Below are positions 48,001 to 62,972 of a DNA stretch of 64,000 bases, piece after piece. Origin of the DNA: Acidobacteriota bacterium. GTDB taxonomy: Bacteria; Acidobacteriota; Thermoanaerobaculia; Thermoanaerobaculales; Sulfomarinibacteraceae. Both the position numbers and the translations under genes were made by a program. How positions within the stretch are numbered: the stretch's first letter is position 1; each line of letters opens with the position of its first letter. The stretch spans positions 2,007 through 66,006 of the forward strand of contig JAJDNH010000025.1 in assembly GCA_022340775.1 (NCBI GenBank), given 5' to 3'. The notes below the pieces were generated by a model. That model ran no database searches, was not told where the DNA came from, and worked only from the letters and a program-made list of their open reading frames with translations.

Positions 48001-49346
48001 GAGGGCTCCCGTTCGATCCCGTAGGTCTGGATTTTCTTGTACAGGTTGGAGCGCGGCGTGTCGATGGCGCGAGCCGTGGCGGCAATGTTCCAGCCGTTGA
48101 GCTCCAGCTGATGGGCGATGTAGGCTCGCTCCGCGGCCCGCTGGAAGTCGTGAAGCGTCGGAGCGTCCAGTAGCCCGCTGGTCTCCGCGGCGGCTGGTGC
48201 GCCCAGAAAGTCAATGCTGCGGATGACATCATCGAGCTCCATGATGACGGCGCGCTCGACAGTGTTTTTGAGCTCGCGGACGTTGCCGGGCCATGCGTAG
48301 CGGCAGAGCTCGGCGAGGGCCGCCTCGTCCCACCGCTTGAGGCGTCGGTTGTACTCCTCGCATGAGGCCCTCGTCAGGTGCTCCACGAGCAGCGGGATGT
48401 CCTCGGCGTGCTCGCGCAAGGGGGGCGTTCTCAACATGACCACCGCGAGCCTGTAGTAGAGGTCCTCGCGGAACCTCCCCTCGGTCACCTCGTGTACCAG
48501 GTCCTTGTTGGTGGCTGCGATGACCCGGACATCGACCGTGAAGGGCTCGCCGGCGCCGACCGGCTCGACCTCGCCATCCTGAAGCACGCGCAGTACCTTG
48601 GCCTGGGTCTTAAGCGACATGTCGCCGACCTCATCGAGGAAGATCGTTCCGCCGTTGGCTTGCACGAACTTCCCCACCTGTCGCCGGTGGGCGCCAGTGA
48701 ACGAGCCCTTCTCGTGCCCGAACAGCTCGGATTCGATCAACTCCTCGGGGATGGCGGCGCAGTTGACGCGGATGAAGGCCGCCTTGGCTCGGGCCGAGAG
48801 ACGGTGGAGACGACGAGCCACCAGCTCCTTTCCGGTGCCGGACTCACCTCGCACGAGAACGGTTGCCCGTGACGGGGCAACACGCGCGATCTCCTCGCGC
48901 AGCCGGCGCATGACGAGGCTGTCGCCGAGCAGTGGAGGCGGCTCGAGGTCGGTGGTTTCTTGACGGGCGAGGCGCCCTTGAGCAACCGCGCCGCGGATTG
49001 CCAGCAGCAGCTCGGAGCGGTCCGGCGGCTTGGTCAGGTAAGAGGCCGCTCCCGCCTCTAGGCAGTCGCGTGCCGTGAACTCGTCGCCGTGGCCGGTGAG
49101 GATCACTACCGGGATCTCCAGCCCGCGCTGGCGGAGGTTCTCCATCAAGCGCAAGCCGTCCATGCCGGGCATCTTGATGTCGAGCAGCATCGCGTCGGGA
49201 GGCGTCGTGTCGAGCCTGTCCAGCGCCTGAAAAGCATCCGACGCCTCATCGACCTGATAACCGGCGCCGCTCAGGATCCGCTGCAGGATCTTCCGGACCC
49301 CCTGTTCGTCGTCGACGATCAGAACCCGGCCTTCCACCGATCTCAC
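47997..49346 (-). CDS. Sigma54-dependent response regulator (NtrC family: REC + AAA+ + Fis-type HTH)
   Basis: VLIVDDE...LLDIKMPGMDG, GESGTGKE, GAFTGA-like GSFTGA, and a C-terminal HTH AATARAIDTPRSNLYKKI. Confidence 0.9.
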   Translation of the reverse strand: MRSVEGRVLIVDDEQGVRKILQRILSGAGYQVDEASDAFQALDRLDTTPPDAMLLDIKMPGMDGLRLMENLRQRGLEIPVVILTGHGDEFTARDCLEAGAASYLTKPPDRSELLLAIRGAVAQGRLARQETTDLEPPPLLGDSLVMRRLREEIARVAPSRATVLVRGESGTGKELVARRLHRLSARAKAAFIRVNCAAIPEELIESELFGHEKGSFTGAHRRQVGKFVQANGGTIFLDEVGDMSLKTQAKVLRVLQDGEVEPVGAGEPFTVDVRVIAATNKDLVHEVTEGRFREDLYYRLAVVMLRTPPLREHAEDIPLLVEHLTRASCEEYNRRLKRWDEAALAELCRYAWPGNVRELKNTVERAVIMELDDVIRSIDFLGAPAAAETSGLLDAPTLHDFQRAAERAYIAHQLELNGWNIAATARAIDTPRSNLYKKIQTYGIEREPS

Positions 49347-50872
49347 CCCTCCACGTCGAACGTTACGCCCTGGGCCAACGGCAGCTCGCGGCCCCAGTTG
49401 ATGGTACAGGTCTGTCGGCGCATGTAGGCCTTCCAGGCGTCCGATCCCGCCTCACGTCCGCCGCCGGTGTCCTTCTCCCCGCCGAACGCGCCGCCGATCT
49501 CCGCCCCGGAGGTTCCGATGTTGACGTTGGCGATGCCGCAGTCCGAACCCTCGTGAGACAGGAAACGCTCCGCCGTGTACAGGTTGGAGGTGAAGATCGC
49601 CGATGACAGGCCCTGGTCCACCGAGTTGTGGAGGGCTATCGCCTGCTCGAGCTCATCGAACTCGAAGATGTAGAGGATGGGGGCGAACGTCTCGTCGCGC
49701 GTGATCTCCATGCCGGCATGCGCCCTGACGAGGGTTGGCTCGACGTAATATCCGGGGCGATCGAGGCGCCGGCCGCCGTACAGAATCTCGCCTCCCTGCT
49801 CGCGAATGGTATCGATGGCCGAAAGGTAAGACTGCACGGCGGCCTCGTTGACCATCGGTCCCATCAGCGTTCCCGGATCGAGGGGGTCTCCGATCGGGAT
49901 GCTGCCGTACGCGCTGACCAGTCGCTGGGTCATCGCTGGCGCAGCGCCTTTCTGCAGGAAAAGCCGCCGCAGCGACGTGCAGCGTTGGCCTGCGGTGCCG
50001 ACAGCGGCAAACAGGATCGCACGCAGGGCGAGGTCCTGGTCGGCATCGTCAGTGACGATGACGCCATTGTTGCCGCCCAGCTCGAGGATCGAGCGGCCGA
50101 AGCGGCGGGCCACCGCCTCGCTGACGTGCCGTCCCATGTCGCATGAGCCGGTGAACGAGACGAGTGGCACCCGGCGGTCGTTGATCATCCGTTCGCCGAC
50201 CAGTGACCCGGAACCGATCGTGAGATTGAAGATGCCCTCGAGGCCGTGCCGCTTCATGATCGGGTTGACGATGTTCTGGACGGCGATCGCGGTCAGCGGC
50301 GTTGAGGACGAGGGCTTCCAGATCATGGTGTCGCCGCAGGCGGCGGCGACGGCGGCGTTCCACGCCCATACCGCGACCGGGAAGTTGAAGGCGGTGATGA
50401 TGCCGACGATGCCGAGCGGATGCCACTGCTCGTACATCCGGTGGCGGGAACGCTCGGAGTGCATGGTGAGACCCGAGAGCTGGCGCGACATGCCGACTGC
50501 GAGGTCACACATGTCGATCATCTCCTGCACCTCCCCGAGGCCCTCGGAGAGAATCTTGCCCATCTCTAGAGACACCAGCCGGCCGAGGTGTTCCTTGTTT
50601 GTGCGCAGAGCGTCCCCCAGCTCCCTCACGATGAGCCCCCGTTGCGGGCCCGGCATCATCCGCCACGACGAGAACGCCGTCTGCGCGGTTGTGACAACCT
50701 GCTCGTAGGCTGCCTCGTCGGCCTGGACCACCTTGGCGATCGGGGTGCCGTCCGCGGGGTTGATCGACACCAACTCGCGGCCGCCGGCCACCGAGATCCA
50801 CTCGCCGGCGCAGGCTCCGGGATTGCTCTCCTTGATGCCGAGCTCGTCGAGCAGCTTCCTGATATCGGTCAT
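49343..50872 (-). CDS. Aldehyde dehydrogenase, ALDH7/piperideine-6-carboxylate (aminoadipate semialdehyde) dehydrogenase-like
   Basis: ILELGGNN, FAAVGTAGQRCTS (catalytic Cys), and an ALDH7-like N-terminus GIKESNPGACAGEW. The start is ATG 50872 with an AAGGAGG SD. Confidence 0.85.
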   Translation of the reverse strand: MTDIRKLLDELGIKESNPGACAGEWISVAGGRELVSINPADGTPIAKVVQADEAAYEQVVTTAQTAFSSWRMMPGPQRGLIVRELGDALRTNKEHLGRLVSLEMGKILSEGLGEVQEMIDMCDLAVGMSRQLSGLTMHSERSRHRMYEQWHPLGIVGIITAFNFPVAVWAWNAAVAAACGDTMIWKPSSSTPLTAIAVQNIVNPIMKRHGLEGIFNLTIGSGSLVGERMINDRRVPLVSFTGSCDMGRHVSEAVARRFGRSILELGGNNGVIVTDDADQDLALRAILFAAVGTAGQRCTSLRRLFLQKGAAPAMTQRLVSAYGSIPIGDPLDPGTLMGPMVNEAAVQSYLSAIDTIREQGGEILYGGRRLDRPGYYVEPTLVRAHAGMEITRDETFAPILYIFEFDELEQAIALHNSVDQGLSSAIFTSNLYTAERFLSHEGSDCGIANVNIGTSGAEIGGAFGGEKDTGGGREAGSDAWKAYMRRQTCTINWGRELPLAQGVTFDVEG

Positions 50873-50944
50873 CAGCAGTCCTCCTTGACTTCTCCGATCC
50901 TCCGGACGCGGGGAGTGTACCACCGGCGACGGCCGCTGAAGCCG

Positions 50945-51559: not shown

Positions 51560-53125
51560 TCATCGCTGCTGGTCGCGGGCGCGGCGCAGCAGGCGCTCGA
51601 GCTCGCGCCGGCCTCTCAGCTGCTGGTACATCTGAGTGGCACGAGGGTGTTCAGGCTCGGATGCGAGGGCTCTTTCGAGGGCCTTTCGTTGCCGCTCCGG
51701 GTCGTTCCGACGACGCCAGAATTCGGCCAGCTCGAGCCACGCATCGACATAGGCTGGGTTGGAATCGATGGCCTTGCGAAGGCTGAGCAGGGCGCGTTGG
51801 CTCCAGAGTGGGTTGCGCATCAGCAGGCGGGCGAGCTTGAGGAGCTCAGGAGGCCGCGGATCGAGCTCGCAGGCCTGTTCGAGGAGCTGGATCGCGAGGT
51901 ACACCTCACCGTCCTTCACGAGCTCATCAGCGCGCTTGAAGTTGGCCTCGACAAGTTTGGAGCGAGCCGCCTGGCTCGCCGTGCGGCGCTTCTTGCCTTC
52001 CTCGATCTGGGCCTCCTGCTGTTCCTCGATCGATCGCAGCACCTTGTCGTAGCGGCTGCGCGACGAGGCAGCCGAGAGCACCTCGTAGGCCTCTGCAGAG
52101 CGGCTGAGGATCGTCGTCAGCTGCGGCTTGAGATCACGGAGGTGAATCTCGAGCGACCGCTCCGGTGAGAACTCCCGCTGAGCGCGGTTCCACGCGTTCT
52201 CGATCTCCTCGAGCCGGACCGACCGCTCGAGGCCGAGGGCCCGATAGTGATCGACGCGCGGGCTCTCATCCGCGAGATTCTGGATGTGTTCGCGCTCCGC
52301 CAGCTGGGTGGAGGTGAGGAGCGATTCGTCGACGACCGCAAGGTGCTCGCCGGAGCTCGCCTTGCGCGTGCTGACGTCCGGGAGAGGGGCCGGGGCCAGG
52401 TCCGGAGAGGTCCCCACCGAAAGCACGCCGGCGGTCTTGAGCGCATAGAGCGTCGCCAGGGCCTTGTCCTCGGCGAGAGGGGAGACGGAGACGAGCTCGG
52501 AGAGCCGGCGAGTGCCGTCGAGGCGGCTCAGGAAGTACGCCTCGCTCGGGGTCAGCGCGAGCTCGCTCAACAAGGTATCGAGGGTGGTGCTTGGCCAGAC
52601 GATCTGCGACATGGGCTGCAGCGCCGCCCGCATCGCACCGACATCCGTGAACGCGCGTGCTGCAAAGAGAATCAGCTGAGTCGTGGTCAGATTCGGCAGG
52701 GTGTCGGGCTGGCCCTCGGCGCGTCCCTCTACGAACTCACAGAACGTCCGCGGGGCTGCAGCTGCCCGGCAGATGATCGTGACCGCGAGCTCCTCCAGCT
52801 CCTGCTCGAGCCGCGCTTGTTCGAGGCAGCCGCGAGTCACCAGCAGGTGCCCAAGGGGGGGAGCGTCGCCTCCGCCCTGGGACAACAGCGTGAGTGCCTT
52901 CTCATTGTCCGAGATGAGGCCGCGGAGAACGAGCCAGCTGCCGAGCTTTTCCTCCTCACTGTTGGAACGGGCGGCGCGCAACTCCCCATCGACGAACAAC
53001 AGCTCGCGCAGGGTCTCGCCGGCGAAGGCGGTGAGGATGCCGGTGGACTGGCTGCGCGCGACCCGTGCCATGTAGTCGGGCAGTGGGCGCGAGCGCCGCA
53101 GGTCGAAGCGGTCGTCGATGGGCAT
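51560..53125 (-). CDS. DUF4388/PATAN-like N-domain protein with degenerate J-domain-like segment and C-terminal TPR-like repeats
   Basis: A DUF4388-like STGILTAFAGETLRELLFVDGELRAARSN is present. The J-like segment is DHYRALGLERSVRLEEIENAWNRAQREFSPE..YEVLS...SRYD, with no HPD. The C-terminal helices are TPR-like. Confidence 0.6.
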   Translation of the reverse strand: MPIDDRFDLRRSRPLPDYMARVARSQSTGILTAFAGETLRELLFVDGELRAARSNSEEEKLGSWLVLRGLISDNEKALTLLSQGGGDAPPLGHLLVTRGCLEQARLEQELEELAVTIICRAAAAPRTFCEFVEGRAEGQPDTLPNLTTTQLILFAARAFTDVGAMRAALQPMSQIVWPSTTLDTLLSELALTPSEAYFLSRLDGTRRLSELVSVSPLAEDKALATLYALKTAGVLSVGTSPDLAPAPLPDVSTRKASSGEHLAVVDESLLTSTQLAEREHIQNLADESPRVDHYRALGLERSVRLEEIENAWNRAQREFSPERSLEIHLRDLKPQLTTILSRSAEAYEVLSAASSRSRYDKVLRSIEEQQEAQIEEGKKRRTASQAARSKLVEANFKRADELVKDGEVYLAIQLLEQACELDPRPPELLKLARLLMRNPLWSQRALLSLRKAIDSNPAYVDAWLELAEFWRRRNDPERQRKALERALASEPEHPRATQMYQQLRGRRELERLLRRARDQQR

Positions 53126-53129
53126 CAGC

Positions 53130-54233
53130 CTACCCGCCCTCGTCCCCCGAGGGCCCTGTGGGAGTGTGGCGTGTCAGCTCGACCACGGCCGGAGTCACGC
53201 CTTCCTGGACCAGAGCCTTGGGTACCGAGCCGATGGCATCCCGAGCGGCCTCAGACGAGCCGTAGTCTCCCCACAGCAGCTGCCAGCACGGGACTCCCCC
53301 TTTGAGGTCTCGGCGTTGCGCGGTGAGATCCTCGGGGTGTTGGCCGGCCTTCCTGAGGATCCTCTGCAGGTCCTGAGGATCGCACCCGGAATCGACCACG
53401 ATGCCCCAGTGACCCTTGACAGCCGCCTGCCGGCGGTTGTGGCCGAGGACCAGCGCCACCGCCGCCACGGCGATCACAAGGGCAACCACTGCCGCCGCGA
53501 TGAGCCATGCCCTACGCCTGCCGGCGGGCCGTCCTACATCCTCCAGGGGAACCGGAGCGACCGAGACCACGGGTTCTGAAACCTCCGCCACCGGTACCGC
53601 TTCGAGCAAGCCTGCCGCCGCCAGGCCTGCCAGGAGACGTGCTACCTCCGACGGGTCATGCGGCGACCGGCTGGCAATTTCCTCGGCGGTGCGCTGGCCG
53701 GTGACCTTGGCCACGACAAGGTCCGCTTCCTCGGCCAGCTGCAGCGCCGCGTACGACTCCAGAAAGCCCGCCGTCCGGCGGAGGAGGACGTTGAGGTTGG
53801 GGAGGATAGCGGAGGTGATGTCGTCCCCATCATCCGACAGGACGGCCTCGACGATGGCGTGGGACAGCGAGATCGTCGGCCGGTCGTCTTCCTCGACCTC
53901 GTATTCGGCCGCCTCCAGGGTGCGGTCGGGATCGAGCAGCCATGAGTGCAGCGCCCTCTCCAGGACCGACTTGACGATTGCCAAGGCGTCGGTCTCACTG
54001 CGGCCCGCCTGTACGGCCGCGGCCTTCGCCTCCTCCAGAAGGTCGGCATGGCCGGCCGGCCTGCAGCCGAGCCGGCGCGCAACGACGGTCGGGTCAGGGC
54101 CCTCGATGCCGATCGCCCTACCGAGGCTGATCTGCAGCGTGAGCTCACCGCCGCCCCAAGCCAGGTGCAGGTCCCCGCTCCTGCGGGCGGCGATCCAACG
54201 CCCAAGCCGCCAGATCGACTGCGGATCGTTCAT
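53130..54233 (-). CDS. DUF4388/PATAN-like protein with one TM helix and C-terminal SPOR-like domain
   Basis: SGDLHLAWGGGELTLQISLGRAIGIEG is followed by the TM WLIAAAVVALVIAVAAVALVL. The C-terminal part is HWGIVVDSG..CWQLLWGDYGSSEAARDAIGSVP. The start is ATG 54233. Confidence 0.5.
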   Translation of the reverse strand: MNDPQSIWRLGRWIAARRSGDLHLAWGGGELTLQISLGRAIGIEGPDPTVVARRLGCRPAGHADLLEEAKAAAVQAGRSETDALAIVKSVLERALHSWLLDPDRTLEAAEYEVEEDDRPTISLSHAIVEAVLSDDGDDITSAILPNLNVLLRRTAGFLESYAALQLAEEADLVVAKVTGQRTAEEIASRSPHDPSEVARLLAGLAAAGLLEAVPVAEVSEPVVSVAPVPLEDVGRPAGRRRAWLIAAAVVALVIAVAAVALVLGHNRRQAAVKGHWGIVVDSGCDPQDLQRILRKAGQHPEDLTAQRRDLKGGVPCWQLLWGDYGSSEAARDAIGSVPKALVQEGVTPAVVELTRHTPTGPSGDEGG

Positions 54234-54309
54234 GGTGCCAGGGTAGTCGATTGCCGCGTTGTTGCCAAGCTGCAGGCAGGCGACGATGATGGTCCTTCCG
54301 GAGGACGTA

Positions 54310-54774
54310 TCAGCTTTGCACTCTCTTGCGGCGCATCGGGATCGCAAGTACTGGGCACGGCGCCATCCGCAGGACCTTGTCGGTGACGCTGCCGAGAATC
54401 GCATGCTCGAGCCCCCGCGTTCCGTGGGTGTTCATGACGATCAGGTCCACCTTCTCCTCGGCGGCGACATCGACGATCACGCGAGCGGGGCGCCCGCGCG
54501 AGACCATAATCTCGATCTTGAGGCCCGAGGGCGCCTCCTCGACGACCTCCTGCAATGTGGACAGCGCGCGACTGCGGATCGAGCGGTAGTAGTCCTTGTT
54601 GGGAGAGTGAAAGGAGAAGATGTCGGGGTACGGGAAGGTGTCTTCGACCACGGCCAGCATGATCAGCTCGGCACCGTTGAGCTTGGCCAGCTGCACGGCC
54701 AGGTCGAACGGCCGCCGGCTGAAGTTCCCAACGTCGACGGGAATCAGGATCCGTGTCGGCAATGGGTTCCGCAT
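54310..54774 (-). CDS. Universal stress protein (UspA family)
   Basis: ILIPVD is present, followed by DLIVMNTHGTRGLEHAILGSVTDKVLRMAPCPVL. Confidence 0.85.
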   Translation of the reverse strand: MRNPLPTRILIPVDVGNFSRRPFDLAVQLAKLNGAELIMLAVVEDTFPYPDIFSFHSPNKDYYRSIRSRALSTLQEVVEEAPSGLKIEIMVSRGRPARVIVDVAAEEKVDLIVMNTHGTRGLEHAILGSVTDKVLRMAPCPVLAIPMRRKRVQS

Positions 54775-54886: not shown

Positions 54887-54961
54887 GGGAGGTTAGCTCA
54901 GCGGCAGAGCACCTGCCTTACACGCAGGGGGTCGTGGGTTCAAATCCCCCACCTCCCACCA
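54887..54961 (+). tRNA. tRNA-Val (anticodon UAC), CCA encoded
   Basis: Cloverleaf folded by hand: acceptor GGGAGGU/ACCUCCC, D-stem GCUC/GAGC, anticodon stem CCUGC/GCAGG with loop CUUACAC, T-arm GUGGG-UUCAAAU-CCCCC (one U.C mismatch). Length 75 nt. Confidence 0.85.
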
Positions 54962-54978: not shown

Positions 54979-55055
54979 GGGGTCGTAGTTCAGCTGGTTA
55001 GAACGCCGGCCTGTCACGCCGGAGGTCGAGGGTTCGAGTCCCTTCGGCCCCGCCA
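54979..55055 (+). tRNA. tRNA-Asp (anticodon GUC), CCA encoded
   Basis: Acceptor GGGGUCG/CGGCCCC (one U.G), D-stem GUUC/GAAC, anticodon stem CCGGC/GCCGG with loop CUGUCAC, T-arm GAGGG-UUCGAGU-CCCUU. Length 77 nt. Confidence 0.9.
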
Positions 55056-55248: not shown

Positions 55249-57741
55249 CTATACCGTGAGTCCGGGGACCTTCACGATCGGGTGCCCCTCGTCGTCGACC
55301 TCGAAGCCGGTAGGCAACCTGAAGTCGGGATCCAGGGACCGGTAGTAGTCCACGTCGTAGGCCGTGAGCCGTAGCCGAGCTAAGCCGCGGCGGTGACCGT
55401 TGACGATCTCCGCGGTGAGGCCGAAGTCGACCTCGCCGAGGTCGGTGCTGACAATGTAGCGGGGTAGCTCGCGTCCACTGCCGTTCGTTCTCAAGGAGCT
55501 GGCGATGTCCAGTACCCTGGACAAGGGGATCGGTTGCTTGGCGTTCCACCATTTCTGGGGCGGCAACCCGGCCACGTAGAGGTGGTGGACCTCGATGCCG
55601 AGTCGACGGCAGGCCGCCGTGATGTCGGTGATTGTCCGACAGTTGTCGTTGATGGCAGCAAGCAGGGGAATGCTGGCGTGGACGGTGACCCCCCGCCTGC
55701 GGAGCGCCTTGACGAGTCGCTGGTGGTCCGGCTTGAGATCGGTCGGATGGAGGAGGAGAGTCTCGACCTCGAGGCGTGTCGGGTTGACGCTCGACAGCCG
55801 GTTCAAGGAGGTGATCCGGCGCACCATCCCGTCCGAGAAAGCCTCCGGTTCAAAAGCCGCAGCCAGGCTCCGCAGCCGCACGGCGTTGACATGGGGCAAC
55901 GGTTGCAGGCGCTCGACGATCACCCCGACTTTGTACAACGTGTGGGCCACGTCCCGGCGGGAGAAGAGGACGACATCGGTGATGCGGGTGTTGGAGGAGA
56001 TGTACTCGACGGAGCGCGCGATCTCCTCCTCCGCTGCCTCACAGTCGAGCTCCACGCGGGTCATGTGCGGGCGGGACAGTGACCGGAGGCCGGTGTCGAC
56101 GAGGGAAGGCCCCAGCAAGGGGTCGTGTCGAAAGCGCTGCCGGATCTCGTTGAGAGCTTCCTCTCGGGCGTGTTCGGGCAGGGGAGTGGCTTCGGCCAGC
56201 GGGCGCGCCCAGCTGCGTGCCTCGCGTGGCCCTAACAGAAAGGCAGAGTCGCCCACTTTGGCCATCAGCTTCGCATCGAGGGTTCCTTCCCGGTTGGGCC
56301 TTGCTATCCGGGACAGGTCGAGGATCGGGGCGAACGTCTCGAGGTACTCGAGAGAGTAGGGTGTTCGCAGCCACACGAAGCGTTCGTCGTCCTGGTCGAT
56401 TTCTACCGCCCATCCACTGGTGCCCCAGTCGATTTTGCCGATGGAGGTCGCGGTGCACAGATGCGGGACTGCGCGATCCGAGAGGGTTGCCCTCAGGACT
56501 CGGGCGGCCTGGAGGCCGGAGGAAAGCGTTGATGCGTACCTGCGGTTGCCCTGGATCGGGCTGCACGGCATGAAGATGTAGTGCATTTCGGCGCCGGCGC
56601 CCCGCAGCCTACGGTAGAGCTCGGCGAGGGTCTCTCCCAAGTCGTTGCAGCCACCGACATAGGGAGTCTGCACGTAGACGCCGATGCCGTTCCCCACCAA
56701 CTCGGTAATGACCTCGAGGCTTCTGATGGTCACCTCGTCGGGGTGGATGAAATGGGTGGCGATCTCGATCTTCCTGTCTCTCTGGGCCAGCTCGAGCTGC
56801 TTGCGCTTCAGGTAGTCGAGCCAGAAGCCGTCCCGGCCGGTGAACAGGGCAGGGTGGTAGGAGAGCGCCCGGGTGGCGACCCGCAGCGTCTCCACGTGGG
56901 GGACCTTGGCGAGGCCGTCGATGGCTTGAGTCAGGGTAGGCCGGTTCATGAAAGGATCGCCCCCGGTGAGGACGACCTCCTTGATCTCGGGGCAACTCTT
57001 GATGTACGCCACTCCCAGGTCGACGTGCTTCTGAGTCGGCGCTCTCTGGGTCCGACACTCCTTGTGCTTGCGGAAGCAGAACCGGCAGAAGACGGGACAC
57101 ACCATGTTGAGGATGAAGATCACCCGGTTGCGGTACATCTGCTCGATGACCCCGCGGTGGAACTGGCCGACCCAGGTGTGGACGAGGCCCTCGCGGTCCA
57201 ACTCGTCCGCGAAAGGCTGGTACTGGTAGGCGACGGCGGGCGAAAGCCGCATCTGGCGAATGGTGTGGGCCGAGAAGCGAGCTGGGTAAACCGCAAGCAC
57301 CTCTCTCAGGGCGTCACGTTCCTCCTCGGGGACCTTCCGGTTGGTGAGCTTCTCGAGACGGCTGAGAGTCTTGACATCGATGATCGCGTCTCCGGGAATC
57401 AGCACTTCCAGGATAGCGAGCAGGAGAGCGTAGGGGATCCGGACCCCGTCCACCGCGACCTGTGCGGCTACCTGTCCGTTGGCCAGTGCGAGCTGCGCCA
57501 GTACCTCTTCGAAGAATCCCTGTGCGTCGTCCTCGTAACCAGCCGCAGTGAGCAGCCTCAGGAGGCGGCTTTCGCCGTCCCCCTCGCCGGTCACGGTACA
57601 AAAGTCCGTGTCGACCAGCGGCTCCGCACCGTACAGCTCAAGGAACTCGACTGTGGCCCGTTCGAGTGCCTTGAGGGGAACCTGCAGCTTCTCCTTGGAG
57701 GGAAGAAACTCGACTGAAAGATCTGCCTGCGGTGTCTGCAC
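55249..57741 (-). CDS. Large KamA-family radical SAM protein (aminomutase-like) with a second, degenerate KamA-like module
   Basis: CPVFCRFC (C215/C219/C222), LTGGDP, THFIHPDE and SIGKIDW are in the first module. The second module (about aa 560-775) parallels it but lacks the Cys triad, GGDP and the Lys. GTG start with an AGGAGG SD. Confidence 0.8.
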   Translation of the reverse strand: MQTPQADLSVEFLPSKEKLQVPLKALERATVEFLELYGAEPLVDTDFCTVTGEGDGESRLLRLLTAAGYEDDAQGFFEEVLAQLALANGQVAAQVAVDGVRIPYALLLAILEVLIPGDAIIDVKTLSRLEKLTNRKVPEEERDALREVLAVYPARFSAHTIRQMRLSPAVAYQYQPFADELDREGLVHTWVGQFHRGVIEQMYRNRVIFILNMVCPVFCRFCFRKHKECRTQRAPTQKHVDLGVAYIKSCPEIKEVVLTGGDPFMNRPTLTQAIDGLAKVPHVETLRVATRALSYHPALFTGRDGFWLDYLKRKQLELAQRDRKIEIATHFIHPDEVTIRSLEVITELVGNGIGVYVQTPYVGGCNDLGETLAELYRRLRGAGAEMHYIFMPCSPIQGNRRYASTLSSGLQAARVLRATLSDRAVPHLCTATSIGKIDWGTSGWAVEIDQDDERFVWLRTPYSLEYLETFAPILDLSRIARPNREGTLDAKLMAKVGDSAFLLGPREARSWARPLAEATPLPEHAREEALNEIRQRFRHDPLLGPSLVDTGLRSLSRPHMTRVELDCEAAEEEIARSVEYISSNTRITDVVLFSRRDVAHTLYKVGVIVERLQPLPHVNAVRLRSLAAAFEPEAFSDGMVRRITSLNRLSSVNPTRLEVETLLLHPTDLKPDHQRLVKALRRRGVTVHASIPLLAAINDNCRTITDITAACRRLGIEVHHLYVAGLPPQKWWNAKQPIPLSRVLDIASSLRTNGSGRELPRYIVSTDLGEVDFGLTAEIVNGHRRGLARLRLTAYDVDYYRSLDPDFRLPTGFEVDDEGHPIVKVPGLTV

Positions 57742-57821: not shown

Positions 57822-58700
57822 TCACCGCAGCGTCTTGCACCACACGTGCATGTTCTCGAAGCGGCCTGCGATGTGGCAGTTTTTGACCAACGTGCCGGTC
57901 CACTCGTAGCCACGGTTGTAGAACACGCGGTTCATGCCGGCCGAACGGGCCCTGGCGATGGTGTACAGGTAACGAATGTCCCGCTCCGCCATGTCCTCCT
58001 CGAGGGCTGCGAGGGTGTGCTGCGCCAGTCCCAGCCCTCTCCGATCCGGAAGCGTGGCGAAATCGGTCATTTCCGCGTTGTGGTGTGCACGAATGGTGTC
58101 TGCTGATGCGGCGGCGATCAGGGATCCTCCGTCGTCCCGAACGATCCTATAGACCACGTCGGACAGCATGGTCTCGATCAGGAAGCCGGGGTCCGTTATC
58201 GGGAACGGATAGCTCTTGAAGACCGTGTCGTAGAGCGCGGCGAGCTCGTCGGCGTCTTCCGGCCGTGCCACCCGCATCAGGTAGCCGTCGGGGAGCGCCG
58301 GCACGGAGGGATCTGCAGGGCGGGAGCGGATCTTGCGGAGGATTGATTCCTCCTCTTCCGCAGCCGGGCGCTGCCGACGGTTCTGATCGAGAAACCTCGA
58401 CATCACCACGGCGGGCTTCCCGTTGAAGTAGCCGGAGATCGTGGCTTCGGCCTGCATGCCGGCAGCCTCGAGAGCGGCTCGATCCTCGACCGGCGCCTTC
58501 ACGAAGATCTTGCCGAGCTTCAGGTCAAGCGCCTTCTCGGCGAGCTCTTCGACCATGCCGATGAGGTTGGATCCCTCATAGTCGAGAATGTGGACCCTGC
58601 GGTTCAGTCCGCTGAAGACGGCTCGGGCTCTGTAGCCCTGTCCGTCGACAGAGAGTCGGGTATCGATCTCGGAACCCGCGGTGATTCGGACTGCGGTCAT
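57822..58700 (-). CDS. ablB: GNAT acetyltransferase, AblB-like (putative beta-lysine N6-acetyltransferase)
   Basis: A two-part architecture typical of AblB (N-terminal regulatory-like half, C-terminal GNAT with ATLPDRRGLGLAQHTL). The start overlaps the ablA stop (ATGA). Confidence 0.7.
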   Translation of the reverse strand: MTAVRITAGSEIDTRLSVDGQGYRARAVFSGLNRRVHILDYEGSNLIGMVEELAEKALDLKLGKIFVKAPVEDRAALEAAGMQAEATISGYFNGKPAVVMSRFLDQNRRQRPAAEEEESILRKIRSRPADPSVPALPDGYLMRVARPEDADELAALYDTVFKSYPFPITDPGFLIETMLSDVVYRIVRDDGGSLIAAASADTIRAHHNAEMTDFATLPDRRGLGLAQHTLAALEEDMAERDIRYLYTIARARSAGMNRVFYNRGYEWTGTLVKNCHIAGRFENMHVWCKTLR

Positions 58701-60037
58701 GCGCTCCTCCCTGTCGGTTCCTCCTCCTCGCCTTCCTCCTCTGGCGACAGGGCAGATGGAATGAGTGCGATGTTACCTGGGTCATCGTCGAATAGGCCGG
58801 CCACACCGACCGTTTCCAGTCCCTCGCGGAGGACCTCGCGGCAGTGCGAGCAGGGGTGCCCCTCCGAGCACATCCCGATGTAGTCCCTGGGCTCCTCGTA
58901 GGCGACGATACGGCCTTCGAAGTTGCGGAGGATCACCTTGTGCTCGTGCTGCGAGACCACGTAGTTGGGATGCACGGGGATCTTGCCGCCGCCACCGGGG
59001 GCATCCACGACGAAGGTGGGTACGGCGAGGCCCGAGATGTGGCCGCGCAGGTGCTCCATGATCTCGATTCCCTTGGCGACAGTGGTCCGAAAGTGCATGA
59101 GACCCTCGGCGAGGTCGCACTGGTAGATGTAGTACGGACGAATACGGTTGACGGTGAGCTTGTGCATCAGCTTGCGCATCAGTGCCCAGCAGTCGTTGAC
59201 GCTTCGCAGCAACACGGTCTGGTTCCCGAGGGGGATGCCGGCGTCGGCCAGGAGTGCCACTGCGGCCTCGGACTCGGAAGTGAACTCCTTGGGTACGTTG
59301 AAGTGCGTGTTGAGATAGATGGGGTGGTAGCGTTTCAAGGTCGCTGCCAGGTTCGGCGTGATCCGCTGGGGCATGGTCACCGGCAGCCGCGAGCCGATGC
59401 GGATAATCTCGACCGACGGCGCTTCCGCACGCAAGCGCTTCAGGATGTGCTCGAGGCGTTCGTCGGACAGCAGCAGGGGATCGCCGCCCGAGAGGAGCAC
59501 GTCCCTGATTTCCGTGTGCTCGTTCAGGTAGGCGATTCCGGCATCCAGCTGGGCATCCGTGATCGCAGCCGGCCGCTCGCCGACCTTGCGCTTTCGGGTG
59601 CAGTGCCGGCACAGCATGGCGCACTCATGCACCACGACCCACAGCACGCGGTCCGGGTAGCGATGAGTCATGCCCGGAGCCACCGAGTCTCCCTCCTCGT
59701 TGAGGGGGTCCTCGATGTCAAAGTCGCTCAGCGTCAGCTCGCCCTCACCGGGAATCGCCTGCAGCCGGATCGGGCACTCGGGGTCGTCGGGGTCGATCAG
59801 CGAGGCGTAGTAAGGCGGAACCGCGAATCGGAAGCGATCGAGGGCGCGCTCGATCGTACGTTGCTCGCGGGGCGTCATGGGCAGGATGCGGGCGAGCTCC
59901 TCGGCGGTAGTGATGCGGTGGCGCATCTGCCAGTGCCAGTCGCGCCACTCCTCGTTGGGAACGTCCCGCCAGATGGAGCGCTCCTTGTAGGAAGGCTGAG
60001 CCCGGGACGCCGAACGCTCGGTGACTGGGATCGTCAT
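58697..60037 (-). CDS. ablA: Lysine 2,3-aminomutase (KamA/AblA)
   Basis: CAMLCRHCTRK (CxxxCxxC), LSGGDPL, NTHFNVPKE, GNQTVLLRSVND, YYIYQCD and VVDAPGGGGKIP (PLP Lys). The start is ATG 60037 with an AAGGA SD. Confidence 0.9.
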   Translation of the reverse strand: MTIPVTERSASRAQPSYKERSIWRDVPNEEWRDWHWQMRHRITTAEELARILPMTPREQRTIERALDRFRFAVPPYYASLIDPDDPECPIRLQAIPGEGELTLSDFDIEDPLNEEGDSVAPGMTHRYPDRVLWVVVHECAMLCRHCTRKRKVGERPAAITDAQLDAGIAYLNEHTEIRDVLLSGGDPLLLSDERLEHILKRLRAEAPSVEIIRIGSRLPVTMPQRITPNLAATLKRYHPIYLNTHFNVPKEFTSESEAAVALLADAGIPLGNQTVLLRSVNDCWALMRKLMHKLTVNRIRPYYIYQCDLAEGLMHFRTTVAKGIEIMEHLRGHISGLAVPTFVVDAPGGGGKIPVHPNYVVSQHEHKVILRNFEGRIVAYEEPRDYIGMCSEGHPCSHCREVLREGLETVGVAGLFDDDPGNIALIPSALSPEEEGEEEEPTGRSA

Positions 60038-60256
60038 GGTTTTTCCTTTCGGGCACGCCAAACGGCTAGCGGGTCTCGCCTGGGGAGATGCAGCCGCACT
60101 GGAGGACGAATGGGGGGAGCATTACAGACACCAATTGCATTGCATGCTAAATATTATCACACAGAACGCTTCGGGGCAAGAGATGAGAAGAGACCAGGGG
60201 GCCGGGGTCGAGGGTGAGGAGCGGGGCCGAATCCCCGAGCGCTCGAAGGCTGATCT

Positions 60257-60832
60257 CTACCGCTTTGCCTTGTCCGGCTGGAGCCGCTTCAGGAACGTCT
60301 CGGTCCCTTCCGAGCTGGCATCGAGGGGTCCGGTGGACAGGATCGGGCCTGCTTCGACGCTCTCCGCCTCCATCAGGGCCACAATCCGCTGTAGCGAGGA
60401 CAGGATCTGGGTCTGTTCCCACTCCGGAAGCCCGCTGAACGCATGCGTGAAGTGCTCCTGCAGCAGGGGCGGTGCCTGTGCGATGAGCGTCTCCGCCGCG
60501 TCTGTGGAGGAGACGATGACCTTCCTTCTGTCCTCTGTGCTTCTCACCCGTTCAACAAGGCCCTTCCGATCCAGGCGGTCGAGGATGCCGGTGAGCGTCG
60601 CCTGGCTCAGGTTGACCGCATGTGCGAGCTCGCTGACGGTTTGGGGAGAGCTCTCGGCAAGCTCCTTCAAGACGACGAGCTGAGGCCCGGTGAGGCCATA
60701 GCGTTGGACGAGCGTGCGCGAGTGAAGGTCGATGGCTCGAATGATGCGTCGCAGGGCCGCCAGAACCCCCCTCGTGGTCCGTGGCTCTGAGTTCGATCCG
60801 GACGGTATGGCCTTGGCACTCATCGACGGCAT
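60257..60832 (-). CDS. MarR family transcriptional regulator
   Basis: GLTGPQLVVLKELAESSPQTVSELAHAVNLSQATLTGILDRLDRKGLVERVRSTEDRRKV. The start is ATG 60832. The 443-aa ORF to 61588 is an antisense-of-infC extension. Confidence 0.85.
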   Translation of the reverse strand: MPSMSAKAIPSGSNSEPRTTRGVLAALRRIIRAIDLHSRTLVQRYGLTGPQLVVLKELAESSPQTVSELAHAVNLSQATLTGILDRLDRKGLVERVRSTEDRRKVIVSSTDAAETLIAQAPPLLQEHFTHAFSGLPEWEQTQILSSLQRIVALMEAESVEAGPILSTGPLDASSEGTETFLKRLQPDKAKR

Positions 60833-60906
60833 TGTACTTGAACGCGGAAGCAATTCAGACTCACCTCGGTGCGGGCGATTTGACGTATTGCGGCGGACAT
60901 AATAGT

Positions 60907-61580: not shown

Positions 61581-62972
61581 GTGCACATCGCCGACTACCT
61601 GATCCTCGCTGCGTACTTTCTCGGCATGCTGGGGATCGGCATGTACTTCCAGCGTCGCCAGACGAGTCTCGAGGAGTACTTCGTTGGCGGCAGGGACATG
61701 AGCGCCCGGCACATCGGGCTGTCCGTGGTGGCGACCGACGTCGGTGGGGGTTTCTCGATCGGGCTCGGAGGCCTCGGCTTTGTGATGGGGATCTCCGCTT
61801 CGTGGCTGCTTTTCTCGGGCCTCCTCGGTGCCTGGGTCTCGGCCGTCATCCTGGTGCCGAGAGTCAAGAGCCTGGGTTCCATTCACCAGCACAGGTCGTT
61901 TCCCGACTTCCTGGCTCACAGGTTCGGGGAGCCAACACGACTGGTGGCAGCGGTCGTCTCGGCCGTCGGCTACGCGGGCTTCACCGGCTCACAGCTGCTG
62001 GCCGGAGGCAAGCTCGCGTCGGCGGCTTTCCAGTTCAACCTGACCACTGCGGTGCTGCTGATGTCTTTCGTCATAGTCGGTTACACCGCTCTCGGCGGCC
62101 TCGAGGCGGTCGTCTACACCGATACCGCACAATGGGGAATCCTGTTTGTCGGTCTTCTCGGCCTTGGCGTACCGCTCGGCTTCTACGAGGTCGGAGGGTG
62201 GTCGGGGCTCAAGGGCGCCCTGCCGCCGAAGTTCTTCTCGCTCGGCAACGTGAGCACGATGCAGATCGTGACCTGGATGGTGACCATCGTGCCGATCTGG
62301 TTTGTAGCGATGACCTTGTACCAGCGAATCCACGCCTCGCGCGACGTCGCTACTGCGCGCCGGGCGTGGTTCATGGCAGGGCTGCTGGAGTACCCGGGAA
62401 TGGCGTTCATGGGGGCCGTCCTCGGCATGTTCTCGAGGGTGCTGTACCCCCACGTCGACCCGGAGATGGGCTTGCCGCTGCTTATCCGAGACGTGCTACC
62501 CGCCGGCGCCACAGGCCTGATCCTGGCCGCCTACTTCGCGGCCATCATGTCGACTGCGGACTCCTGTCTACTGGCCAGCGTGGGTAACCTGGTCGATGAC
62601 ATCATCGGACGCCATGTGGCTCCCTCGGCATCGGAGCAGTCCATGCTCCGCCTCTCTCGGATCCTGACCGCAGTCGTCGGTTTCGGCTCAGTCGCGTTTG
62701 CCCTCTACATCCCTCAGGTGATCGACTCGATCCTGCTTGCCTATTCCTTCATGGTGGCGGGCCTGTTCTTTCCCACCCTGGGGGCCCTGTTCTGGCGCCG
62801 CGTCAGCGGAACCGCAGCCTTCTGGAGCGTGGTCGGCGGCGGCGGGACGACGGTATTCCTGACAGTCGCCCACACCGCCGTTCGGCTGGACCCGGTGTTT
62901 TACGGCCTAGCGGTTTCCGGGGCTGTGCTTGTGATCCTCACCTTCTGGTTTCCTTCCAAGCGGTTGGCCTGA
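61581..62972 (+). CDS. Sodium:solute symporter (SSS) family transporter
   Basis: About 13 TM helices, with an N-terminal block YFLGMLGIGMYFQRRQTSLEEYFVGGRDM typical of the SSF. GTG start. Confidence 0.85.
   Translation: MHIADYLILAAYFLGMLGIGMYFQRRQTSLEEYFVGGRDMSARHIGLSVVATDVGGGFSIGLGGLGFVMGISASWLLFSGLLGAWVSAVILVPRVKSLGSIHQHRSFPDFLAHRFGEPTRLVAAVVSAVGYAGFTGSQLLAGGKLASAAFQFNLTTAVLLMSFVIVGYTALGGLEAVVYTDTAQWGILFVGLLGLGVPLGFYEVGGWSGLKGALPPKFFSLGNVSTMQIVTWMVTIVPIWFVAMTLYQRIHASRDVATARRAWFMAGLLEYPGMAFMGAVLGMFSRVLYPHVDPEMGLPLLIRDVLPAGATGLILAAYFAAIMSTADSCLLASVGNLVDDIIGRHVAPSASEQSMLRLSRILTAVVGFGSVAFALYIPQVIDSILLAYSFMVAGLFFPTLGALFWRRVSGTAAFWSVVGGGGTTVFLTVAHTAVRLDPVFYGLAVSGAVLVILTFWFPSKRLA

Follow-up and report, generated by a model that had tools for sequence, protein, structure and literature searches.

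Among the enzymes described so far, those closest to the protein reported here are the KamA-type aminomutases, for which, to our knowledge, only a single structure and few specificities (lysine, glutamate and arginine) are known. The structure is that of lysine 2,3-aminomutase (LAM; KamA of Clostridium subterminale, PDB 2A5H), which has a single barrel in a chain of 416 aa and reportedly assembles as domain-swapped dimers stapled by zinc. Here, we analyzed a 64,000-nt stretch of the genome of an Acidobacteriota bacterium (GCA_022340775.1, contig JAJDNH010000025.1; hereafter the window), in whose list of open reading frames (ORFs) an uninterrupted frame of 830 codons encodes a two-module KamA-like protein of the radical S-adenosylmethionine (SAM) type. 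Unlike LAM, the product of this gene, referred to below as the long gene, has two barrels in one chain as well as a novel N-terminal domain. The reading that we favor, with a probability of roughly 55%, is that of a single-chain, pseudo-dimeric aminomutase with a live and a dead barrel in tandem, which takes part in the metabolism of the osmolytes beta-lysine and N-epsilon-acetyl-beta-lysine. The parts of this reading differ in strength: the claims on architecture and evolution very likely hold, and the link of the 830-aa protein to beta-lysine has roughly even odds.

The original prediction held that the protein contains an internal duplication, in which an intact radical SAM module is followed by a degenerate copy, and placed it at 55417..57099 (aa 215-775, from the first Cys of the CxxxCxxC motif to a GE motif). 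In an unbiased BLASTP comparison of the N-terminal 480 residues with the C-terminal 350, all of the sequence blocks on which this prediction had been built were present and paired as claimed, with aa 237-472 aligned to aa 571-805 (25% identity over 241 columns, E 4e-17). Using profiles of the two modules made from 41-sequence alignments, with homologs from several phyla, hhalign aligned module 1 to module 2 with a probability of 99.8% (E 2.6e-30, 246 columns). When the PDB was searched with each profile separately, 2A5H was the only KamA-type structure found, both by module 1 alone (E 4e-30) and by module 2 alone, without module 1 (E 8.7e-17). A full-length AlphaFold2 model built with 56 homologs was compact and of high confidence (pLDDT 90.3, pTM 0.93), and its best fold match in the PDB was again 2A5H (Foldseek, E 1e-17, target-normalized TM 0.65), making LAM the sole solved structure matched by the modules and by the model. 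Within the model, 19 secondary-structure elements (strands and helices) match one to one and in the same order between the modules, and the two-barrel chain is predicted to form one compact body. Because the module-2 profile finds 2A5H and the model repeats the same elements in both modules, we conclude that the C-terminal half is related to the KamA fold, and that the duplication was correctly recognized, with homology between aa ~200-480 (module 1) and aa ~556-830 (module 2).

For the comparison of the two active sites, residue conservation was counted over 80 homologs, and module 1, module 2 and AblA-type sequences were placed in a three-way alignment, with LAM numbering taken from HMMER alignments. 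Module 1 has a mean column identity of 78% in the 41-sequence alignment and shares with LAM the CxxxCxxC motif, the GGD motif, the Arg two residues past the third Cys, the N-D pair and the PLP (pyridoxal phosphate) lysine (Table 1). Of these, R224 (aligned to LAM Arg134) and the N366-D367 pair are, like the module-1 motifs in the table, invariant in 80/80 homologs. The GK dipeptide of module 1 stands at the site of LAM G336-K337, two residues nearer to P325 than in LAM, as the GGGGK loop of LAM is shortened to IGK. Judged by its residues, module 1 thus bears every hallmark of a [4Fe-4S]/SAM/PLP aminomutase, and it would generate a 5'-deoxyadenosyl radical and, assisted by PLP, carry out the 1,2-amino shift of 2,3-aminomutases, in which the amino group of an amino acid bound to PLP moves to the neighboring carbon. 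C365 and C393 are also invariant; the idea of a third conserved Cys that would belong to an auxiliary metal site was set aside, as conservation of C429 is only 77-94%.

In module 2, the same alignment revealed the losses that had been predicted. No Cys triad is found, as the entire loop equivalent to LAM 122-143 is deleted; GGDP has become SRRD, in which the Asp alone is conserved (D597 in 76/80 homologs; the family form is [S/A]xxD); and GK has become GE, with an acidic residue at the former lysine position in 80/80 homologs (E in 72, D in 8). The second barrel can therefore neither bind the cluster nor form the PLP Schiff base (internal aldimine). Nevertheless, it contains 25 invariant columns and has a mean column identity of 63% across the 41 sequences from several phyla. 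Invariant positions on the former active-site face include R562, D589, R622, E658, E660, N698, D699, H719, H720, R751, S755, G756 and R757, and several residues are invariant in both modules alike. With a homologous fold, lost cofactor residues and strong purifying selection, module 2 has the features of a pseudoenzyme domain, and the conservation of its former active site fits a ligand-binding or interface role better than that of a passive spacer.

The architecture is widespread. Among 5.8 billion proteins searched, more than 120 were full-length homologs of 814-859 aa (48-90% identity, 99-100% query coverage); they are labeled "lysine 2,3-aminomutase", "KamA family protein", "radical SAM protein" or "hypothetical". 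When one genome per species was scanned, relatives turned up in 388 of them, from Thermoanaerobaculia, Holophagae, Aminicenantes, Gemmatimonadota, Calditrichota, KSB1, Muiribacteriota and, mostly, Desulfobacterales; cultured carriers among the last include Desulfocicer vacuolatum DSM 3385 and Desulfopila sp. IMCC35006. An exhaustive HMMER search of 1.84 billion cluster representatives showed about 14 full-length representatives with down to 38% identity, in all inspected cases with both modules, and the two-barrel architecture is thereby retained to that level of divergence in proteins of 808-850 aa. The original prediction had allowed that a sequencing or assembly error might have fused two adjacent KamA genes artificially. 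We rejected this explanation and consider it exceedingly improbable: no support for it was found, and the same uninterrupted architecture occurs in the more than 120 proteins, which come from independent projects and cultured strains, and in the 388 species-level genomes. One metagenome-assembled genome (MAG) shows the opposite error, a frameshift that splits the gene. In this MAG (GCA_036734665.1, L090:3466-5963), the annotation divides the long gene into proteins of 494 aa and 320 aa, with the frameshift near residue 455-460, and the database entry P0155 on that contig is the 3' part of the frameshifted full-length gene. "Module-2-only" entries do exist among the HMMER matches; these are fragments, and such database proteins can be gene-calling artefacts. 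A natural split-gene version, which would have argued for a heterodimer, was not found, the one entry that could be placed on a contig being this frameshift.

To understand how the two modules arose, we compared them with shorter proteins. The closest single-module relatives of module 1 form an unnamed short KamA-like clade (340-410 aa; for example P0157, P0158, P0174, P0177 and P0180) with 31-35% identity to module 1 (140-198 bits). Members of this clade have one barrel and no N-terminal domain, are likewise uncharacterized, and score under all NCBIfam KamA cut-offs. In the three-way alignment, seven derived residues are common to both modules and differ from the conserved AblA-type residues: E326/E658 (modules 1 and 2, respectively; Y/W in AblA-type sequences at LAM 226), R380/R712 (T/L, LAM 280), G383/G715 (R, LAM 283), E385/E717 (R/K, LAM 285), H387/H719 (Y, LAM 287), R423/R757 (L/M, LAM 322) and T432/T766 (A, LAM 331). 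The short clade has module 1's E326, R380, G383, E385 and R423 together with the short xGK loop, and a C-terminal "D-x-D/E-G-x-I-V" tail is alike in both modules and the short clade. In a neighbor-joining tree of 189 barrel columns with 200 bootstraps, modules 1 and 2 were each monophyletic in 200/200 replicates and were sisters in 163/200 (82%), nested among the short proteins. Because the modules share derived residues and group as sisters inside the short clade, we attribute them to an internal duplication; the simplest reading of the sequences is that a whole short-type gene was duplicated in tandem and that the second copy then lost its cofactor sites. The short clade also lacks LAM's two lysine-binding aspartates. 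Its hosts are Myxococcota, other Deltaproteobacteria, Patescibacteria and DPANN archaea, and the gene context at three of its loci (L087-L089) consisted of unrelated, variable neighbors that gave no clue.

Outside the barrels, the original prediction had described an N-terminal region of about 200 aa with no recognizable motif. This description stands for aa 1-~120 and not for the remainder: aa ~120-200 align to the N-terminal helices of KamA-family models, the NCBIfam KamA-family alignments starting at aa 120-137 of the 830-aa protein. Residues T189, W190, G192, Q193, F194 and H195 at the end of this KamA-like part are invariant among homologs. For aa 1-~120, there were zero matches in Pfam and NCBIfam, a profile found no match among PDB sequences, and a dedicated model (pLDDT 81) had no Foldseek match in the PDB (best E 1.7). 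This domain is nonetheless conserved among homologs: column identity averages 54% within it and 60% over the first 195 residues as a whole. The linker between the barrels (aa 481-544) is the least conserved stretch of the homolog alignment.

A second question is what the degenerate barrel is for. The original prediction suggested that it mimics the oligomer interface of aminomutases or offers a regulatory or substrate-carrier site, and both roles are compatible with our data. We propose that module 2 is a built-in partner subunit, forming an intramolecular pseudo-dimer that would make a zinc-stapled homodimer like that of LAM unnecessary; it may also supply a ligand-binding or regulatory pocket. 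Several differences from LAM bear on this. The LAM_C domain (PF12544), present in the AblA protein encoded in the window (E 2.4e-33), is not detected by Pfam in the 830-aa protein. LAM's CxCxxC motif, which the window AblA has kept, is absent as well, with no conserved Cys cluster past K436, and LAM Cys268, a zinc ligand that bridges the subunits, corresponds to L368 here, at a variable position. A pseudo-dimer role is plausible and fits because the model is compact (pTM 0.93), LAM_C and the Cys motif are absent, and residues are invariant in both modules. A different emphasis, which we hold to be possible and consider doubtful, is that module 2 serves chiefly as a sensor, allosteric or ligand-binding, rather than as a structural pseudo-subunit, and that an effector (an amino acid, an osmolyte or a cofactor-like molecule) bound in the old pocket tunes module 1. 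Residues of the pocket face, including D597 and E/D770, have indeed been kept though the catalytic groups are gone, and in a purely structural partner one would expect the surfaces, rather than a pocket, to be conserved. However, module 1 and the short relatives show the same invariance at several of these positions, which may be determinants of the fold or the interface; no ligand can be deduced from them, and a sensor would in any case be compatible with the pseudo-dimer role.

For the function of the live barrel, we turned to gene neighborhoods. In the window, the gene order is MarR-ablA-ablB-(80 bp)-long gene, with the ablA stop codon and the ablB start overlapping by 4 bp. The gap between ablB and the long gene contains no terminator-like site and no convincing internal promoter (consensus scans are weak at 65% G+C), an AGGAGG sits 7-8 nt 5' of the GTG start, and the long gene, ablA and ablB apparently form one operon, that of the AblA/AblB pathway (TIGR03820/TIGR03827). 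The window AblA shares 29% identity with the 830-aa protein over 237 residues. To survey related loci, ORFs were called and neighbors clustered for 83 non-redundant loci, 59 from Desulfobacterota and 24 from elsewhere. The closest relative, in an uncultured Thermoanaerobaculia (Acidobacteriota) MAG (L007), has 83% identity and an identical gene order, and the order MarR-ablA-ablB-long gene is also found in L009 besides L007; the MarR position is likewise filled in L002/L009 and L007. Homologs of the PutP-like symporter occur near the long gene in L007, L009, L010 and L001. Overall, a gene for AblB, AblA or another KamA-type protein lies within 10 kb of the long gene in 17/83 loci (including L070, where AblA was found by tblastn), and AblB is at most 1 kb away in 12. 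These adjoining AblB genes pass the equivalog cut-off of 205 with 283-346 bits. At four of the loci (L030, L031, L036 and L047; AblB 283-328 bits), no canonical AblA was found in the fetched flanks of 3.8-10 kb on each side. Outside Desulfobacterota, the long gene is often solitary, with AblB at 5 of the 24 loci, AblA or another KamA at 6 and a PutP-like symporter at 5. In L001 it stands amid BCCT and SSF transporters, and a group II intron (Rfam D1-D4, with domain V/VI flanking a reverse-transcriptase ORF) lies at L001:3444-5569 beside the symporter gene that adjoins the long gene.

Of the 59 Desulfobacterota loci, 27 have a Pot-type ABC importer, 25 an Amidohydro_3 hydrolase and 26 a proline-racemase homolog of the Cys/Cys type among the neighbors of the long gene. 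Three arrangements recur: the long gene is the last gene of a long operon with the importer, hydrolase and racemase genes, it is divergent from that set with an IclR regulator in between (19 loci), or it is convergent with the set and directly preceded by an AblB gene. A few bp downstream of the long gene (typically 10-14), 23 Desulfobacterota loci encode a cytoplasmic, M23-like protein (221 aa) whose HxxxD and HxH zinc motifs are invariant and which co-occurs with AblB only in L047. This M23-like protein (L059:12458-13120, L046:12476-13144) matches the middle of NF004799/PRK06148, a model of 1015 aa. In one type of Desulfobacterota operon, a conserved ORF of 105-138 aa without a family match overlaps or abuts the start of the long gene from upstream (L059:9618-9980 and 8 further loci). 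On a Desulfobacterota-like metagenome contig that is counted with the 24 loci from elsewhere, the long gene is followed by a glutamate-2,3-aminomutase-like KamA gene (L006:10614-11861; TIGR04368, 543 bits, cut-off 650), whose product carries Gln in place of LAM Asp293. Beta-glutamate is another osmolyte. At one further locus (L079:13673-14875), the gene immediately downstream of an AblA-long-gene pair is for an ornithine-oxo-acid transaminase (TIGR01885, 538 bits, cut-off 378) and faces an amidohydrolase/proline-racemase/ABC operon, an arrangement suggestive of a tie to ornithine/proline metabolism.

These neighborhoods place the enzyme in beta-lysine/acetyl-beta-lysine metabolism, despite a pocket unlike that of LAM, and we consider the most likely reaction to be an alpha to beta interconversion, in either direction, of lysine or its N-acetyl derivative. 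A reversible alpha/beta isomerase would fit because the partners alternate between AblB on one side and hydrolases and importers (M23-like, Amidohydro_3, ABC) on the other: an AblB partner would serve synthesis and the hydrolase partners breakdown, differing by genome. The role of the long gene within the AblA/AblB pathway is in this sense drawn from its context. A number of observations weigh against our reading. Most loci outside Desulfobacterota show no Abl linkage and have variable neighbors, and in the window itself a canonical AblA is also encoded, next to which a second lysine aminomutase would be redundant. In LAM, Asp293 and Asp330 reportedly bind the epsilon-ammonium group of lysine; these sites are C393-S394 and A431 in module 1, (near-)invariantly so, and AblA-type sequences retain Asp at the lysine-binding sites in 7/8 cases. 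Further KamA-invariant positions are changed in module 1 (H131F, N228A, R283G, Y287H, R302W and G321D, in LAM numbering). All curated KamA-family cut-offs of NCBIfam are missed, with 140.9 bits against 199.2 for the general KamA family (TIGR00238), 142.8 against 525.4 for AblA/KamA (TIGR03820) and, for the best match, arginine 2,3-aminomutase (TIGR04468), 160 against 600. We found no experimental or literature report on the protein family. As regards its origin, the sister grouping of two long branches in a simple neighbor-joining tree could partly reflect long-branch attraction.

Because module 1 departs from characterized aminomutases at so many KamA-invariant positions, its substrate may be other than lysine, and its chemistry may be another as well. 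It is conceivable, although we consider it unlikely, that the enzyme has no beta-lysine role and acts on another amino acid (ornithine-, proline-, arginine- or glutamate-related), the adjacency to ablAB reflecting a general "osmolyte/amino-acid island". The missing counterparts of Asp293 and Asp330 would suit such a substrate, as would the top NCBIfam match to arginine 2,3-aminomutase, the proline-racemase homolog in Desulfobacterota, the ornithine aminotransferase in L079, the glutamate-2,3-aminomutase-like neighbor in L006 and the lack of abl genes at most loci outside Desulfobacterota. Set against this is the presence, within 1 kb in 12 loci of at least 4 lineages, of the rare and specific AblB, at several of them with no AblA nearby. 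The neutral Ser/Ala/Thr/Cys pocket of module 1, found where LAM has its two aspartates, would suit an acetylated tail, but module 1 also gains the acidic residues E326, E385, D422 and D438, so that a cationic substrate is conceivable. Pursuing the thought of an acetylated tail, we regard it as quite unlikely that the family has a new KamA-family substrate such as N-epsilon-acetyl-lysine or -beta-lysine, in which case it would supply a step still lacking for acetyl-beta-lysine turnover, or an alternative route to this osmolyte, in bacteria, with the dead barrel acting both as partner and as a metabolite-sensing switch between synthesis and breakdown. Still more improbable, in our judgment, is a re-use of the KamA scaffold for a radical SAM reaction different from a 1,2-amino shift. 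Compared with AblA-type enzymes, much of the active site has been remodeled and the curated models are missed widely (141 against 199 bits for the general model and 143 against 525 for AblA), but the PLP lysine, the carboxylate-binding R224, GGDP and N366-D367 are invariant, and these are hallmarks of PLP-dependent aminomutase chemistry.

What these comparisons imply for naming is that the "KamA-like" label of the original prediction should be read as one of homology, and not of membership of any characterized aminomutase family: homology and the KamA/LAM fold are there, whereas every curated threshold is missed and the lysine-recognizing aspartates are absent. Glutamate 2,3-aminomutase (TIGR04368), arginine 2,3-aminomutase (TIGR04468) and EpmB (TIGR03821), all single-module enzymes, show a weak likeness to module 1 (120-160 bits), and their cut-offs are missed 3- to 5-fold. 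In Pfam, the 830-aa protein scores 26.3 bits against a cut-off of 29.5 for PF04055 (E 9.4e-6) and 22.4 against 22 for PF13353. Full-text literature searches did not return any description of a long or duplicated KamA. The architecture is thus one for which we found no curated family, solved structure or paper, and it is a variant of a known enzyme type rather than a new kind of system. For a two-module family that occurs in 388 or more species-level genomes of phyla living in sediment and soil, the automatic label "lysine 2,3-aminomutase" is misleading. The enzyme is built differently, with a live and a dead barrel in tandem, no zinc-stapled dimer, a remodeled pocket and an orphan N-terminal domain, and its pairing with AblB, sometimes without AblA, and with importers and hydrolases leads to a testable hypothesis on how osmolytes of the beta-lysine type are synthesized or dismantled, a poorly understood step. 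While this is not a major surprise, it should be of use to radical SAM enzymologists and osmolyte researchers.

Table 1. Features of the long gene and its neighbors, in window positions (homolog counts over 80 sequences).
Feature	Positions	Strand	Remarks
Long-gene ORF	55249..57741	-	Start GTG at 57741; coordinates include the stop codon
N-terminal domain, aa 1-~120	57382..57741	-	Beta-hairpin and five helices
KamA/LAM-like N-terminal helical region, aa ~121-195	57157..57381	-	C-terminal end is the family motif HTWVGQFH
Module 1, aa 196-480, KamA-type radical SAM/PLP barrel	56302..57156	-	Catalytic motifs intact
CxxxCxxC (C215, C219, C222)	57076..57099	-	[4Fe-4S] cluster ligands; 80/80 homologs; align to LAM C125/C129/C132
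GGDP (G260 G261 D262 P263)	56953..56964	-	80/80 homologs; aligns to LAM G170 G171 D172
K436, putative PLP-binding lysine	56434..56436	-	80/80 homologs; aligns to LAM Lys337
Linker, aa 481-544	56110..56301	-	Two short strands, low-confidence loop, helix 523-539 (secondary structure and pLDDT of the model)
Module 2, aa 545-830, degenerate KamA-type barrel	55252..56109	-	No Fe-S loop, GGD or PLP lysine
SRRD (aa 594-597), counterpart of GGDP	55951..55962	-	Three-way alignment
E770 at the PLP-lysine site of module 2	55432..55434	-	Aligned to K436 by BLASTP and hhalign
ablB, putative beta-lysine N-acetyltransferase	57822..58700	-	TIGR03827, 288 bits vs cut-off 205; 80 bp upstream of the long gene
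ablA, canonical lysine 2,3-aminomutase	58697..60061	-	TIGR03820, 563 bits vs cut-off 525; LAM_C E 2.4e-33
MarR-family regulator	60257..60850 (start approximate)	-	Upstream of ablA; MarR-type NCBIfam matches
Sodium/solute symporter, PutP-like	61581..62972	+	TIGR00813 and TIGR02121 matches, both below cut-off

Scans with Rfam at gathering level of the window and 11 related loci returned tRNAs, pieces of group II introns and a HEARO RNA as the only matches, and no riboswitch. In the window, tRNA-Val (TAC; 54887..54961, +) and tRNA-Asp (GTC; 54979..55055, +) lie on the strand opposite to the long gene, both within the 474 bp between it and the gene of a universal stress protein (54310..54774, -). 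A lysine-catabolism enzyme of 526 aa, L-piperidine-6-carboxylate (alpha-aminoadipate semialdehyde) dehydrogenase, is encoded about 4.3 kb further downstream (49343..50923, -; NF050084, 760 bits against a cut-off of 730), counted from the long gene. Between the dehydrogenase gene and that of the universal stress protein are genes for a 521-aa protein that has TPR repeats at its C-terminus besides a J-domain-like segment (51560..53125, -) and for a 424-aa protein without a family match (53130..54404, -). Because several unrelated genes and the two tRNAs intervene, the dehydrogenase gene is probably outside the operon of the long gene.

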